Part shown: piece after piece, positions 1 through 20,819 of the stretch | How positions within the stretch are numbered: position 1 is the first letter of the stretch | Layout of the letters: each line of letters begins with the position of its first letter | IMG/VR virus record: IMGVR_UViG_2734482543_000012 | Origin: a virus | Taxonomy: Duplodnaviria; Heunggongvirae; Uroviricota; Caudoviricetes | Length of the DNA: 24,428 nucleotides | Strand: one strand, 5' to 3' | The notes under the pieces: model-generated | The model's database searches: none | The model's input: only the letters and a program-made list of their open reading frames with translations | Told to the model about the DNA's origin: nothing | Made by a program: the position numbers and the translations under genes

Positions 1-426
1 TTAGTGCGGAAATATTTGTGTAGTGTTCTGTATGTTCTCAGTAAAGAGTAATGAATTATCAAAGGTATAGTAATACCTTTTGTTTTCGTGGATATTTGTA
101 ATCCATCTGAAAACCCCTGCTGTAGCAAGATTTTTCCTGTATTCGTAAAATGATAACTCTCCTGATTTGAATCCTTTTAAGGTGGCTTCTATAAGGCATT
201 TATTTTTTGAAAATCTTACATTTACAACCTTACCCTGTCCTTTTATTAAAACCGTATTATCGTTTTCAAGAACAAGATGAATATTCTCTGTGGCTAAATA
301 GTAAATGTAATGTGAGACATTGTGACGTTTTAGTTCAGAATAAAACCAGTGATAGTTTAAATTATTTCGCACTTTATCGAATATTTGTTTAAAAATGGCA
401 ACCTGAGCCATTGTAGTACCTTCCAT
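1..426 (-). CDS. Hypothetical prophage protein, 141 aa from first ATG (136 aa if translation starts at the second ATG near 411, which has a GAAGG Shine-Dalgarno-like motif 7 nt upstream). No recognisable catalytic motif. Possibly a member of the YdfO/YbcV-like (DUF1398-type) family of lambdoid prophages, by size and position only.
   Basis: Complete minus-strand ORF in the six-frame track with its stop codon at positions 1-3. Sits in a strongly AT-rich segment where stop codons are frequent, so a 141-codon open frame is unlikely by chance. Lies immediately downstream of the 77-aa gene on the same strand. Family assignment is from memory, not alignment. Confidence 0.55.
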
Positions 427-468
427 GTGATATGAGGGGGCGTAGTCTGCACGATTATCTAAATTGCT

Positions 469-702
469 TCAATCTGGTCTAACCTGTTTTCTGAGCAATT
501 CAGTAATGTCACTCTTTTCTTTGTTTGCTTCAGGCGAAACTCTTTTTTCTGAGCACAGTCTCCGGCGGCAGGCTTCAATGACCCAGGCTGAGAAATTCCC
601 GGACCCTTTTTGAACAAGAGCGATGTTAATTTGTTCAATCATTTGGTTAGGAAAGCGGATGTTGCGGGTTGTTGTTCTGCGGGTTCTGTTCTTCGTTGAC
701 AT
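469..702 (-). CDS. Small DNA-binding protein with a predicted ribbon-helix-helix (Arc/MetJ/CopG-like) fold, 77 aa. Possibly YnfO/YlcI-like prophage protein.
   Basis: Minus-strand ORF MSTKNRTRRTTTRNIRFPNQMIEQINIALVQKGSGNFSAWVIEACRRRL... has a basic N-terminal tail, a short beta-strand (NIRF), helix A, a G-x-G turn and helix B, the typical RHH layout. It ends 42 nt before the start of the downstream 141-aa ORF on the same strand, suggesting an operon. Fold call is by eye. Confidence 0.6.
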   Translation of the reverse strand: MSTKNRTRRTTTRNIRFPNQMIEQINIALVQKGSGNFSAWVIEACRRRLCSEKRVSPEANKEKSDITELLRKQVRPD

Positions 703-859: not shown

Positions 860-1090
860 TTATCATTTTGCGGGTCCTTTCCGGCGATCCGACAGGTTAC
901 GGGGCGGAAGGCGCGCGGGTTTTCGCTATTTATGACAATTTTCCGGTTTAAGGCGTTTCCGTTCTTCTTCGCCGTAACCTAATGTTTTTATTTAAAACAC
1001 CCCCTGAAAAGAAAGGAAACGACAGGTGCTGAAAACGGGCTTTTTGGCCTCTGTCGTTTCCTTTCTCTGTTTTTGTCCGTGGAATGAACA
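860..1090. other. cos: cos DNA-packaging site (cosQ-cosN-cosB region). Putative 12-nt cohesive-end sequence at 902-913 (GGGCGGAAGGCG), with the cosB/Nu1-binding region extending to the nu1 start.
   Basis: The sequence ...GGGTCCTTTCCGGCGATCCGACAGGTTACG|GGGCGG......CGCGGGTTTTCGCTATTTATGACAATTTTCCGGTTTAAGGCGTTTCCGTTCTTCTTCG... matches the lambda right-end/left-end junction as I recall it, and sits directly upstream of nu1 as in lambda. The central overhang differs from canonical lambda GGGCGGCGACCT (see findings). Confidence 0.7.
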
Positions 1091-1610
1091 ATGGAAGTCA
1101 ACAAAAAGCAGCTGGCTGACATTTTCGGTGCGAGTATCCGTACCATTCAGAACTGGCAGGAACAGGGAATGCCCGTTCTGCGAGGCGGTGGCAAGGGTAA
1201 TGAGGTGCTTTATGACTCTGCCGCCGTTATAAGATGGTATGCCGAAAGGGATGCTGAAATTGAGAACGAAAAGCTGCGCCGGGAAGTTGAAGAACTGCGG
1301 CAGGCCAGCGAGACAGATCTCCAGCCAGGGACTATTGAGTACGAACGCCATCGACTTACGCGTGCGCAGGCCGACGCACAGGAGCTGAAAAATGCCAGAG
1401 ACTCCGCTGAAGTGGTGGAAACCGCATTCTGTACTTTCGTGCTGTCGCGGATCGCAGGTGAAATTGCCAGTATTCTCGACGGGATCCCCCTGTCGGTGCA
1501 GCGGCGTTTTCCGGAACTGGAAAACCGACATGTTGATTTCCTGAAACGGGATATCATCAAAGCCATGAACAAAGCAGCCGCGCTGGATGAACTGATACCG
1601 GGGTTGCTGA

Positions 1611-1636
<26 letters not shown>
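1091..1636 (+). CDS. nu1: Terminase small subunit Nu1 (181 aa)
   Basis: Translation MEVNKKQLADIFGASIRTIQNWQEQGMPVLRGGGKGNEV... is near-identical to lambda gpNu1 as recalled. N-terminal winged-HTH. Position immediately downstream of cos. Confidence 0.97.
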
Positions 1637-5317
<3,681 letters not shown>

Positions 5318-5337
<20 letters not shown>

Positions 5338-6637
5338 TCTCCCGCATATTGCCAGCATGGCTTTTAATGAGCCGCTGATGCTTGAACCCGCCTATGCGCG
5401 GGTTTTCTTTTGTGCGCTTGCAGGCCAGCTTGGGATCAGCTGCCTGACGGATGCAGTATCCGGCGACAGCCTGACTGCCGGAGAGGCACCCGCGGCGCTG
5501 GCGTTATCCGGTGATGATGACGGACCACGACAGGCCCGCAGTTATCAGGTAATGAACGGCATCGCCGTGCTGCCGGTGTCCGGCACGCTGGTCAGCCGGA
5601 CGCGGGCGCTGCAGCCGTACTCGGGGATGACCGGTTACAACGGCATTATCGCCCGTCTGCAACAGGCTGCCAGCGACCCGATGGTGGACGGCATTCTGCT
5701 CGATATGGACACACCGGGCGGAATGGTGGCGGGAGCATTTGACTGCGCTGACATCATCGCCCGTGTGCGTGACATAAAGCCGGTATGGGCGCTGGCCAAT
5801 GACATGAACTGCAGCGCAGGTCAGCTGCTTGCCAGTGCCGCCTCCCGGCGTCTGGTCACGCAGACCGCCCGGACAGGCTCCATCGGCGTCATGATGGCTC
5901 ACAGTAATTACGGCGCTGCACTGGAGAAACAGGGCGTGGAAATCACGCTGATTTACAGCGGCAGCCATAAGGTGGATGGCAACCCCTACAGCCATCTACC
6001 GGATGATGTCCGGGAAACATTGCAGTCCCGGATGGATGCAACCCGCCGGATGTTTGCACAGAAGGTGTCGGCATATACCGGCCTGTCCGTGCAGGCTGTG
6101 CTGGATACCGAGGCTGCAGTGTACAGCGGTCAGGAGGCCATTGATGCCGGACTGGCTGATGAACTTGTTAACAGTACCGATGCGATCACCGTCATGCGTG
6201 ATGCACTGGATGCACGTAAATCCCGTCTCTCAGGAGGGCGAATGACCAAAGAGACTCAATCAACAACTGTTTCAGCCACTGCTTCGCAGGCTGACGTTAC
6301 TGGCGTGGTGCAAGCGACGGAGGGCGAGAACGCCAGCGCGGCGCAGCCGGACGTGAACGCGCAGATCACCGCAGCGGTTGCGGCAGAAAACAGTCGCATT
6401 ATGGGGATCCTCAACTGTGAGGAGGCTCACGGACGCGAAGAACAGGCACGCGTGCTGGCCGAAACCCCCGGTATGACCGTGGAAACGGCCCGCCGTATTC
6501 TGGCCGCAGCACCACAGAGTGCACAGACGCGCAGTGACACTGCGCTGGATCGTCTGATGCAGGGGGCACCGGCACCGCTGGCTGCAGGTAACCCGGCATC
6601 TGATGCCGTTAACGATTTGCTGAACACACCAGTGTAA
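5318..6637 (+). CDS. C: Capsid maturation protease / scaffold gpC (439 aa), GTG start overlapping the 3' end of B
   Basis: ORF frame contains (V/M)TAELRNLPHIASMAFNEPLMLEPAYARVFF..., matching lambda gpC. GTG at 5318 gives the same 439-aa length as lambda C. ClpP/S49-like protease fold is expected for this family. Confidence 0.9.
6032..6637 (+). CDS. nu3: Scaffolding protein Nu3, an in-frame internal start within the 3' part of C (201 aa)
   Basis: Internal ATG (MDATRRMFAQKVSAYTG...) in the C reading frame, at the position corresponding to lambda Nu3 under the constant 900-nt offset seen for neighbouring genes. Not independently verifiable from sequence alone. Confidence 0.6.
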   Translation: MDATRRMFAQKVSAYTGLSVQAVLDTEAAVYSGQEAIDAGLADELVNSTDAITVMRDALDARKSRLSGGRMTKETQSTTVSATASQADVTGVVQATEGENASAAQPDVNAQITAAVAAENSRIMGILNCEEAHGREEQARVLAETPGMTVETARRILAAAPQSAQTRSDTALDRLMQGAPAPLAAGNPASDAVNDLLNTPV

Positions 6638-11449: not shown

Positions 11450-14040
11450 ACCGGTAGGCGATCTGGTCGTTGATTTGAGTCTGGATGCGGCCAGATTTGA
11501 CGAGCAGATGGCCAGAGTCAGGCGTCATTTTTCCGGTACGGAAAGTGATGCGAAAAAAACAGCGGCAGTCGTTGAACAGTCGCTGAGCCGACAGGCGCTG
11601 GCTGCACAGAAAGCGGGGATTTCCGTCGGGCAGTATAAAGCCGCCATGCGTATGCTGCCTGCACAGTTCACCGACGTGGCCACGCAGCTTGCAGGGGGGC
11701 AGAATCCCTGGCTGATCCTGCTGCAACAGGGTGGTCAGGTTAAGGACTCCTTCGGCGGGATGATCCCCATGTTCAGGGGGCTTGCCGGCGCGATCACCCT
11801 GCCGATGGTGGGGGCCACCTCGCTGGCGGTGGCGACCGGTGCGCTGGCGTATGCCTGGTATCAGGGCAACTCAACCCTGTCCGATTTCAACAAAACGCTG
11901 GTCCTTTCCGGTAATCAGGCGGGACTGACGGCAGATCGTATGCTGGTCCTGTCCAGAGCCGGGCAGGCGGCAGGGCTGACGTTTAACCAGACCAGCGAGT
12001 CACTCAGCGCACTGGTTAAGGCGGGGGTAAGCGGTGAGGCTCAGATTGCGTCCATCAGCCAGAGTGTGGCGCGTTTCTCCTATGCATCCGGCGTGGAGGT
12101 GGACAAGGTCGCTGAAGCCTTCGGGAAGCTGACCACAGACCCGACGTCGGGGCTGACGGCGATGGCACGCCAGTTCCATAACGTGACGGCGGAGCAGATT
12201 GCGTATGTTGCTCAGTTGCAGCGTTCCGGCGATGAAGCCGGGGCATTGCAGGCGGCGAACGAGGCCGCAACGAAAGGGTTTGATGACCAGACCCGCCGCC
12301 TGAAAGAGAACATGGGCACGCTGGAGACCTGGGCAGACAGGACTGCACGTGCATTCAAATCCATGTGGGATGCGGTGCTGGATATTGGTCGTCCTGATAC
12401 CGCGCAGGAGATGCTGATTAAGGCAGAGGCTGCGTTTAAGAAAGCAGACGACATCTGGAATCTGCGCAAGGATGATTATTTCGTTAACGATGAAGCACGG
12501 GCGCGTTACTGGGATGATCGTGAAAAAAAACGCCTGGAGCGGGATGCAGCCCAAAAGAGGGTAGATCAACAGCGTCAACAGGACAAAAATGCGCAGCAGC
12601 AGAGCGATACCGAAGCGTCACGGCTGAAATATACCGAAGAGGCGCAGAAGGCTTACGAACGGCTGCAGACGCCGCTGGAGAAATATACCGCCCGTCAGGA
12701 AGAACTGAACAAGGCACTGAAAGACGGAAAAATCCTGCAGGCAGATTACAACACGCTGATGGCGGCGGCGAAAAAGGATTATGAAGCGACGCTGAAAAAG
12801 CCGAAACAGTCCGGCGTGAAGGTGTATGCGGGCGATCGTCAGGAAGACAGTGCTCATGCGGCCCTGCTGACGCTTCAGGCAGAACTCCGGACGCTGGAGA
12901 AGCATGCCGGAGCGAATGAGAAAATCAGCCAGCAGCGCCGGGATTTGTGGAAGGCAGAAAGTCAGTTCGCGGTACTGGAGGAGGCGGCACAACGTCGCCA
13001 GCTGTCCGCACAGGAGAAATCCCTGCTGGCGCATAAAGACGAGACGCTGGAGTACAAACGCCAGCTGGCTGCACTTGGTGACAAGGTTACGTATCAGGAG
13101 CACCTGAATGCGCTGGCGCAGCAGGCGGATAAATTCGCACAGCAGCAACGGGCAAAACGGGCAGCCATTGATGCGAAAAACCGGGGGCTGACTGACCGGC
13201 AGGCAGCGCGGGAAGCCACGGAACAGCGCCTGAAGGAACAGTATGGCGATAATCCTCTGGCGCTGAATAACGTCATGTCAGAGCAGAAAAAGACCTGGGC
13301 GGCTGAAGACCAGCTTCGCGGGAGCTGGATGGCAGGCCTGAAGTCCGGCTGGAGTGAGTGGGAAGAGAGCGCCACGGACAGTATGTCACAGGTTAAAAGT
13401 GCAGCCACGCAGACCTNNNNNNNNNNNNNNNNNNNNNNNNNNNNNNNNNNNNNNNNNNNNNNNNNNNNNNNNNNNNNNNNNNNNNNNNNNNNNNNNNNNN
13501 NNNNNNNNNNNNNNNNNNNNNNNNNNNNNNNNNNNNNNNNNNNNNNNNNNNNNNNNNNNNNNNNNNNNNNNNNNNNNNNNNNNNNNNNNNNNNNNNNNNN
13601 NNNNNNNNNNNNNNNNNNNNNNNNNNNNNNNNNNNNNNNNNNNNNNNNNNNNNNNNNNNNNNNNNNNNNNNNNNNNNNNNNNNNNNNNNNNNNNNNNNAC
13701 CGGCGGCAAATATGAGCCAGCGGGGATTGTTCACCGTGGTGAATTTGTCTTCACGAAGGAGGCAACCAGCCGGATTGGCGTGGGGAATCTCTACCGGCTG
13801 ATGCGCGGCTATGCGGAAGGTGGTTATGTGGGCGGTGCCGGAAGTCCGGCGCAGATGCGGCGGGCTGAAGGCATTAATTTTAATCAGAACAATCACGTGG
13901 TGATTCAGAACGACGGTACGAATGGTCTGCCAGGTCCACAGATGATGAAGGCCGTGTATGACATGGCCCGCAAGGGTGCCCGTGATGAAATTCAGACACA
14001 GATGCGTGATGGTGGCCTGTTCTCCGGAGGTGGACGATGA
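11442..14040 (+). CDS. H: Tail tape-measure protein gpH, interrupted by an N-run (13417-13698). The two halves are in different frames because the gap length is arbitrary.
   Basis: N-terminal part MAEPVGDLVVDLSLDAARFDEQMARVRRHFSGTESDAKK... and C-terminal part ...GGKYEPAGIVHRGEFVFTKEATSRIGVGNLYRLMRGYA...QTQMRDGGLFSGGGR both match lambda gpH. The stop overlaps the M start as in lambda. Confidence 0.9.
13417..13698. other. Assembly gap / masked sequence (282 N) inside the tape-measure gene
   Basis: Continuous run of n characters. By comparison with lambda H length, roughly 245 nt of real sequence would be expected here, so the gap size is not exact. Confidence 0.95.
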
Positions 14041-20010: not shown

Positions 20011-20819
20011 ATGCGTAAAGTTTGTGCAGCCATTTTGTCCGCAGCCATTTGCCTGGCCGTATCCGGTGCGCCTGCATGGGCGTCTGAACATCAGTCCACG
20101 CTGAGCGCGGGGTATCTTCATGCCCGGACCAACGTTCCCGGCAGTGATGATCTGAACGGGATTAACGTGAAATACCGTTATGAGTTTACGGATACGCTGG
20201 GGCTGGTGACGTCATTCAGCTATGCAGGAGACAAGAATCGCCAGCTGACCCGTTACAGCGATACCCGCTGGCATGAAGATTCCGTGCGTAACCGCTGGTT
20301 CAGCGTGATGGCGGGGCCGTCTGTGCGCGTGAATGAATGGTTCAGCGCGTATGCGATGGCGGGTGTGGCTTACAGCCGTGTGTCGACTTTTTCCGGGGAT
20401 TATATCCGCGTAACTGACAATAAGGGGAAAACGCACGATGTGCTGACCGGAAGTGATGACGGTCGCCACAGCAACACGTCTCTGNNNNNNNNNNNNNNNN
20501 NNNNNNNNNNNNNNNNNNNNNNNNNNNNNNNNNNNNNNNNNNNNNNNNNNNNNNNNNNNNNNNNNNNNNNNNNNNNNNNNNNNNNNNNNNNNNNNNNNNN
20601 NNNNNNNNNNNNNNNNNNNNNNNNNNNNNNNNNNNNNNNNNNNNNNNNNNNNNNNNNNNNNNNNNNNNNNNNNNNNNNNNNNNNNNNNNNNNNNNNNNNN
20701 NNNNNNNNNNNNNNNNNNNCCCGACCGAATCCGTGGCCATTGATATTGCTTATGAAGGCTCCGGCAGTGGCGACTGGCGCACTGACGGTTTCATCGTGGG
20801 TGTCGGTTATAAGTTCTGA
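20011..20819 (+). CDS. lom: Outer-membrane beta-barrel protein of the Lom/Ail/PagC/OmpX family (lysogen-expressed moron), interrupted by an N-run. The N-terminal part diverges from lambda Lom; the C-terminal 32 aa are lambda-like.
   Basis: N-terminal signal peptide (MRKVCAAILSAAICLAVSGAPAWA), alternating-hydrophobic beta-strand segments (GINVKYRYEFTDTLGLVTSFSYAG, WFSAYAMAGVAYSRV), and C-terminal ...VAIDIAYEGSGSGDWRTDGFIVGVGYKF ending in aromatic F, as in lambda Lom. Position between J and stf as in lambda. The frame differs across the gap (gap artefact). Confidence 0.85.
20485..20719. other. Assembly gap / masked sequence (235 N) inside lom
   Basis: Continuous run of n characters. Alignment of the flanking Lom segments to lambda Lom suggests only about 10 codons are missing, so the run length is not informative, or extra sequence is hidden. 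Confidence 0.95.

Follow-up and report, generated by a model that had tools for sequence, protein, structure and literature searches.

What does a short, strikingly AT-rich island at the end of an otherwise GC-rich phage genome represent, and does it record a recent transfer of foreign DNA? The question is raised by the first few hundred nucleotides (nt) of the IMG/VR virus record IMGVR_UViG_2734482543_000012, a stretch of 24,428 nt that was analyzed whole and that we call the window. The window corresponds to the left arm of a phage genome of the lambda type, in which Nu1, the large terminase, and a complete complement of head and tail genes are present, and the island occupies a single minus-strand gene of the DUF1398 family. 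As an explanation of the locus as a whole, we favor, with a probability of roughly 0.75, the reading that the island is the coding sequence of an optional, moron-type DUF1398 gene whose AT-richness is old. Morons are understood here as extra DNA of deviant G+C content with its own promoter and terminator (review "The moron comes of age", PMC3594210). Rather than being left over from a recent transfer, the low G+C content is an old and stable trait of the DUF1398 family.

The compositional signal is readily delimited. G+C content is 31.7% over positions 1-426 and 32.9% over 1-468, and 200-nt windows stay at 28-35% up to about position 400, compared to a mean of 56.2% (standard deviation 4.1, minimum 43.2%, runs of N excluded) in 426-nt windows past position 1100. 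The first 426-nt window lies about 6 standard deviations below the rest (z of about -6), and no other part of the whole window is genuinely as low. These values bear out the preliminary description of this DNA, which had put the first 430-470 nt at about 30% G+C against the mid-50s and had located the transition at the boundary of the gene of 136 or 141 amino acids. Specifically, a maximum-likelihood fit with two breakpoints placed steps near 395 and 1125, separating segments of 30.4%, 43.7%, and 54.2% G+C, with the first step no more than 15-30 nt away from where the open reading frame (ORF) starts. The description was right about the sharp drop but not about the island directly abutting GC-rich DNA: a zone of 44% G+C (427-1090, about 660 nt), with the DUF3950 gene, regulatory DNA, and cos in it, lies between.

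The window begins exactly at the stop codon of the ORF (1-3), which hides the left edge of the island. That edge can be seen in a prophage of Escherichia coli 582 (locus L001), which is 99.2% identical over 1-1090 and in which the 600 nt to the left have 45-52% G+C, with KilA-N and lysis genes farther left. With both of its edges thus defined, the island coincides with the coding sequence. Likewise, the lowest 400-nt G+C fraction within 2 kb of cos is 0.30, on the gene, in loci where DUF1398 is present and 0.38-0.41 where it is absent. All three codon positions are AT-rich (37, 27, and 30% G+C, against 58, 44, and 61% in the large terminase gene terL), the FYMINK residues make up 41% of the protein, and the TpA step has a frequency of 0.10 in the island versus 0.03 in the rest of the window. 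Two other apparent AT-rich islands, near 13.4 and 20.5 kb, were rejected as runs of N (13417-13698, 282 nt; 20485-20719, 235 nt), which show as X in the translations and were counted as non-GC. These runs sit in the tape-measure gene and in a lom-like gene, where the apparent G+C is 18-30% and the ORF calls are truncated.

The minus-strand ORF is a real gene, as the preliminary description had supposed when it judged the frame unlikely to be open by chance. A stop-free run of at least 141 codons arose in only 3 of 20,000 shuffles, and the analytic probability for the frame is 1.6e-5. The protein matches Pfam DUF1398 (PF07166) at 3e-43, with 147 bits against a cut-off of 22 and over model positions 1-119 of 119, and it also matches PHROG 413. 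It is about 80% identical (E 1.4e-69) to E. coli YdfO of the Qin prophage, for which a nuclear magnetic resonance (NMR) structure exists (PDB 2HH8), and 76% identical in amino acids to the product of the lambda gene lambdap78. The ratio of nonsynonymous to synonymous divergence (dN/dS), at 0.2-0.3, is in line with this conclusion. While the ORF has 141 codons from the ATG at 426, the true start is likely the ATG at 411, which would yield 136 amino acids; a GGAAGG Shine-Dalgarno sequence stands ahead of it at 419-424, and the RefSeq annotation has the 136-amino-acid form as a "DUF1398 domain-containing protein".

In the lambda-type arrangement the gene is found at the far right of the genome, with the lysis genes on one side and cos on the other; it is read leftward, antisense to the late operon, and just downstream of DUF3950. 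Because cosN is found at 902-913, positions 1-901 form the extreme right end of the virion chromosome, and the island lies 476-901 nt from that end. Homologues are encoded by lambda (47048-47452, within lambdap78, "putative envelope protein", annotated on the complement at 47042-47575), HK629, HK630, and DE3, and by the cryptic prophages DLP12 (ybcV) and Qin (ydfO) of E. coli K-12. Both the gene and its location are thus already known and annotated, and the element is an ordinary one, not of a new kind.

The DUF1398 gene is optional. Among 80 IMG/VR loci with Nu1 at least 99% identical to that of the window, the 71 with enough upstream DNA were counted: DUF1398 and DUF3950 occur together in 26, DUF3950 alone in 30, and neither in 15, so that DUF1398 is absent from 45 (about 63%). 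In the class with DUF3950 only, about 104 nt stand in place of window coordinates -67 to 539, the flanks (-175 to -68, and 540 onward) are 94-95% identical, and the junctions at -68 and 540 are clean. In the class with neither gene, homology returns only at about 845-900, beside cos, and some loci hold other cargo at the site, for example, an ORF with a TonB_C domain. These alignments indicate that phages with near-identical terminase and cos fall into two groups: those with DUF1398, which comes in a small number of deeply diverged alleles, and those from which it is cleanly missing. Two features of morons are therefore seen in this segment, namely, variable presence at one site between conserved flanks, for which the preliminary description had proposed a comparison of relatives, and deviant composition (31.7% G+C, where the DNA immediately to either side has 44-52% and the structural arm 56%). 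Farther afield, 43 of 50,697 records in a phage database encode DUF1398; 166 match the region 1-1090, and the remainder are mostly Shiga toxin (Stx) phages. In complete E. coli genomes (n = 5,426), we found DUF1398 at 3,411 places in 2,717 genomes and nu1 at 6,258 places in 4,119.

A strong G+C discontinuity limited to one gene, whose presence varies among close relatives, could in principle reflect new foreign DNA of low G+C that has not yet been ameliorated to the composition of phage or host, and the preliminary description had taken it as a mark of recent acquisition. The alleles themselves argue otherwise. Nucleotide identity to the window allele is bimodal, with 1,063 records at 99% or more and 1,650 at 80-90%; only 2 records fall at 90-95% and none at 95-99%, while nu1 is at least 95% identical nearly everywhere in the complete genomes. 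Between the window allele and the others, synonymous divergence (dS) is 0.38-0.68 and dN/dS is 0.21-0.34, values that point to old alleles and to a protein under purifying selection. Yet all alleles, at 74-100% amino acid identity, have the same 31-32% G+C. Two chromosomal, non-prophage homologues with 34-38% identity, from clusters named Klebsiella aerogenes and Raoultella, are GC-poor as well (43% against 57% around one, and roughly 35-41% against 55-62% around the other). Since both diverged alleles and distant homologues are GC-poor, low G+C is a trait that the family has long maintained. Furthermore, lambda, DLP12, Qin, and half of the complete E. coli genomes (2,717 of 5,426) carry the gene at the same position, and the exact window allele is 100% identical in the independently isolated phages PhiR49_1, Kati, Chlobot, and ev099 and occurs in over 1,000 E. 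coli genomes. A recent acquisition is largely refuted by these observations, and we consider it unlikely. The preliminary description had named conservation in all relatives at the same composition as the pattern that would speak against its reading; the composition is indeed shared, but the segment is present in only 26 of the 71 loci. The gene has evidently long been in circulation among the accessory genes of lambdoid phages.

Alternatively, the DNA itself might be the functional element, for example as an H-NS nucleation or insulator site or a bendable region that aids cos recognition, with the reading frame secondary. Synonymous sites do stay AT-rich across old alleles (30% G+C at third codon positions), and the island is near cos. 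It also contains a near-consensus match to TCGATAAATT, which we take to be the high-affinity (nucleation) motif of H-NS. The match is the sole one with at most two mismatches in positions 1-1100, and at that threshold the density of the motif is 2.3 per kb in the island versus 0.44 per kb elsewhere. But a dN/dS of 0.2-0.3 reveals selection on the protein, and about 63% of the contigs with the same Nu1 and cos do without the segment, which shows that packaging does not need it. Neither did knock-down of lambdap78 by CRISPR interference (CRISPRi) impair plating (PMC10695390). We find it very unlikely that the DNA, rather than the gene, is what has been kept.

The protein offers few clues of its own. 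Our structural model predicts a duplicated helix-helix-three-strand unit, with the same fold as 2HH8, and this fold has no informative relatives. The protein is without a hydrophobic segment (the highest 19-residue hydropathy is 0.39), and its homologue YdfO was solved by solution NMR as a soluble monomer (PDB 2HH8), for which reasons the labels "envelope protein" and "head protein" are without support. Matches to NCBIfam models were far under their cut-offs, and a PADLOC search returned only Csx23 at a nonsignificant E of 0.025, with no match to a defense or counter-defense family. At phmmer sensitivity the subfamily is small, with 196 representatives (50% level), many of them fragments, among 1.84 billion proteins, and the full-length distant members in clusters with organism names are enterobacterial. 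A statement that YdfO raises oxidative-stress resistance (PMC4077768) was rejected: the cited paper reports YfdO of CPS-53 and never mentions ydfO. The mix-up of YdfO and YfdO lies between PMC4077768 and PMC3105296, and a similar slip between yfdO and ydfO occurs in PMC9181523.

The position of the gene invites another interpretation. The right cohesive end of lambda DNA is packaged last and injected first, so DUF1398 could act early upon entry, as the first-exposed leftward unit encoding an anti-defense or host-modifying protein, and not as a factor of the lysogen. It lies only 476-901 nt from cosN and is read leftward, away from the end, and its deep, discrete allelic classes resemble those of genes under conflict. 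However, dN/dS is well under 1, known defense and counter-defense families gave no match, and the gene is kept and transcribed in defective prophages that never inject. In addition, it is dispensable for plating on K-12: with CRISPRi against lambdap78, the efficiency of plating was 1.9, and the gene was dispensable for plaque formation (PMC10695390). An early role is, in our judgment, distinctly improbable.

A role in the lysogen, which we prefer, can be related to what is known of regulation at this locus. A 24-mer, TTAAGTTGATGCAGATCAATTAAT (758-781), holds a perfect FNR box and is identical to the K-12 targets nohB and nohA/ydfO, which were identified as FNR targets by chromatin immunoprecipitation on microarrays (PMC1802558). 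The box is kept in lambda and in all relatives retaining DUF3950, and by analogy with K-12 the 24-mer would imply oxygen-responsive leftward transcription beside cos. Consistent with this, ybcV is up by log2 1.67 under microaerobic growth (PMC8910356). A PdhR-like box, TGGTCTAACC, stands about 50-70 nt upstream of both candidate start codons. The TGGTCTGACC form of the box occurs in the E. coli 582 prophage and at the ybcV/ybcW and ynfO/ydfO sites that genomic SELEX (gSELEX) recovered from K-12, in which PdhR reportedly binds and loss of pdhR lowers ybcV mRNA 10-fold (PMC7660256). More broadly, the ybcV and ydfO transcripts of K-12 have been measured and respond to PdhR (PMC7660256), to ionic liquid, and to low oxygen (PMC8910356). 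Lambda and the window can be aligned from the gene across the spacer and the PdhR-like box as far as about 487, and the homology stops where lambda has ybcW. Because it extends that far, the cassette may bring its own 5' region, as the alignment suggests.

Silencing by H-NS is a second layer to consider. The E. coli genome has about 50.8% G+C, and the island, at 31.7% over 426 nt, is an AT-rich tract about 20 points under its host, of the kind found in H-NS-silenced DNA. The lambda-DE3 homologue went from 0 to 319 reads upon over-production of T4 MotB, which perturbs H-NS; T7 gp5.5, an inhibitor of H-NS, is noted to up-regulate the DE3 ybcV homologue, and deletion of hns and stpA to up-regulate ybcW (PMC7827196, supplementary table). 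By analogy with these homologues, H-NS silencing of the DUF1398 gene is plausible. In a lysogen, H-NS on the AT-rich DNA would then keep the gene largely silent, and conditional expression would arise from one or more leftward promoters near the FNR and PdhR-like boxes when oxygen is low or pyruvate status changes. The product would be a small soluble protein, located in the cytoplasm and of advantage to the lysogen.

It is conceivable that the AT-richness is not only old but actively maintained, with H-NS holding the gene off in the lysogen and the gene firing either through FNR under anaerobic, gut-like conditions or in the first moments of infection, and with DUF1398, a protein of distinctive fold, serving in conflict or in adaptation to the host. 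Firing at the start of infection would be possible because the gene lies within 0.9 kb of the end of the DNA that enters first, and a conflict or host-adaptation factor would explain why discrete old alleles exist beside a near-invariant terminase. We hold this extension to be improbable.

Several observations weigh against a regulated, lysogen-benefiting moron. There is no phenotype on record for the gene, and the sole published claim of one is the YfdO mis-citation. The PdhR box predicted in the window has a mismatch in its core, a consensus scan found no sigma-70 promoter on the minus strand at the gene, and a terminator scan found no canonical intrinsic terminator directly after the DUF1398 stop codon. 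The evidence on H-NS is second-hand, having been published for homologues; MotB induced the late genes of the DE3 prophage too, and, had the library been unstranded, read-through might have raised the counts (PMC7827196).

On the 3' side, the E. coli 582 prophage has a hairpin and a U-rich run about 60-90 nt past the stop codon, with a fold z-score of only -0.97; the fold of the 3' flank could not be told apart from those of shuffled sequences, and a comparison of the region and the DNA to its left with Rfam yielded only microRNA matches at chance level. Left of the cassette is a noncoding segment of about 108 nt (L001 6825-6932; window coordinates -175 to -68) that is kept at 90-96% in most loci lacking DUF1398, with or without DUF3950, and at the end of which, on the minus strand, a hairpin precedes CGTTTTTGATTATT. 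It may be a shared terminator of leftward transcription. The segment had no Rfam match, and its fold was no better than that of shuffles.

The neighboring gene raised the possibility that DUF3950 and DUF1398 form a module resembling type II toxin-antitoxin systems, in which a ribbon-helix-helix (RHH) antitoxin followed by a toxin would stabilize the prophage or cause abortive infection. The RHH label that the preliminary description had given this gene was not borne out by a profile search: the only profile matched was DUF3950, even at E up to 10, and no RHH family was found. There was also no BLASTP alignment to P22 Arc and no match to a PDB sequence. DUF3950 occurs without DUF1398 in 30 of the 71 loci, and ybcW separates the two genes in lambda and DE3. 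They are not a conserved pair, on which ground the toxin-antitoxin reading was rejected; we give it very little chance. The features at this end of the window are compiled in Table 1.

Table 1. Features at the left end of the window, with positions counted from its first nucleotide
Feature	Position	Strand	Remarks
DUF1398 (YbcV/YdfO/lambdap78 family) coding sequence	1..426	-	Coincides with the AT-rich island
TCGATAAAGT	371..380	-	One mismatch to TCGATAAATT, presumed H-NS high-affinity motif; weak, circumstantial
Short spacer, DUF3950 stop to DUF1398 start	427..468	-	Sequence; lambda alignment
Candidate -10 hexamer GATAAT	454-459	-	Inside the 427..468 spacer; putative promoter, from motif
DUF3950 (YlcI/YnfO family), 77 amino acids	469..702	-	Directly upstream of DUF1398, same strand; 44% G+C
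PdhR-like box TGGTCTAACC	475..484	n/a	One mismatch to TGGTCTGACC
Perfect FNR box TTGATGCAGATCAA	763..776	n/a	61-74 nt upstream of DUF3950 start codon
cosN, 12-nt cohesive-end site, reads GGGCGGAAGGCG	902..913	+	Aligned with annotated cos of phage DE3
Nu1 small terminase gene	1091..1636	+	Pfam Phage_Nu1, 2.4e-101; first gene of the GC-rich structural arm
Large terminase gene	1611-3536		ORF of the window

The cos site of the window is a variant. Its cosN, GGGCGGAAGGCG, differs from that of lambda, GGGCGGCGACCT, at 6 of 12 positions, all in the second half. Among the readable IMG/VR loci with Nu1 at least 99% identical, 7 of 74 have this variant and 67 the lambda type, and the variant is also found in the E. 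coli 582 prophage.

In lambda DE3, lambdap79 (L119 2197-2403) is a ybcW-like gene of 68 amino acids in the opposite orientation, with no Pfam match; a gene of this kind lies between DUF1398 and DUF3950 in lambda and DLP12 and is absent from the window. CRISPRi directed at lambdap79 cut the plating of lambda (3e-4), though the gene is listed as nonessential, and this drop may be a polar effect on the nearby cos and Nu1.

Apparent DUF1398 homologues were also encountered in assemblies of Pseudomonas, Kitasatospora, Flavobacterium, Bradyrhizobium, the Bacillus group, and further taxa (L011-L036). They lie on contigs of about 48.4 kb or about 3.55 kb and are 76% identical to the window protein, the same as the protein of lambda. 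These copies look like contamination with lambda control DNA, including the sequencing control amplicon of about 3.6 kb, and because most hits were of this sort, the contig scan was uninformative on taxonomic spread. On the chromosome of E. coli ECGI0523 (L037 6001-6400), we found a frameshifted DUF1398 pseudogene, with segment pairs of 49-88% identity in different frames and 25-40% G+C across the region, which is another decayed copy of the family.

Our analysis removes a false lead, in that what stood out by its composition proved to be an accessory gene that is ordinary among lambda-type phages and has long been known. There is a wider reminder in this. Although the gene belongs to phage lambda and is found in about half of E. 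coli genomes, it is still without an assigned function; its database labels are unsupported, and the sole function published for it goes back to two gene names being confused.

The closest known counterpart of the locus is that of lambda itself, together with DE3, HK629, and HK630, in which a gene of the same family lies between bor/Rz and cos, is read leftward, and has about 32% G+C. The DUF3950 start region, the FNR box, and the cos region of lambda align with the window at about 90%. The differences are that lambdap78 has 76% amino acid identity to the window protein, with dS of about 0.47, that DUF1398 and DUF3950 are separated in lambda by an extra stretch of about 560 nt, on which the ybcW-like gene lambdap79 lies in the opposite orientation, and that the cosN of lambda is the standard one, unlike that of the window. 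The K-12 genes ydfO and ybcV are 81-85% identical in nucleotides to the window gene but reside in the defective prophages Qin and DLP12, whereas the window has a full head and tail set. Compared to classical lambdoid morons (bor and lom of lambda, gene 15 of HK97; Hendrix), the window has only candidates for a promoter and terminator of its own, and while Bor (serum resistance) and HK97 gp15 (superinfection exclusion) have phenotypes that benefit the host, none is on record for DUF1398. Finally, the gene resembles H-NS-silenced xenogeneic genes of enterobacteria in lying about 20 points under the G+C of its host, in its high TpA frequency, and in having a homologue that is derepressed upon H-NS inhibition, but it is a single gene of 0.4 kb and not an island of many kilobases.
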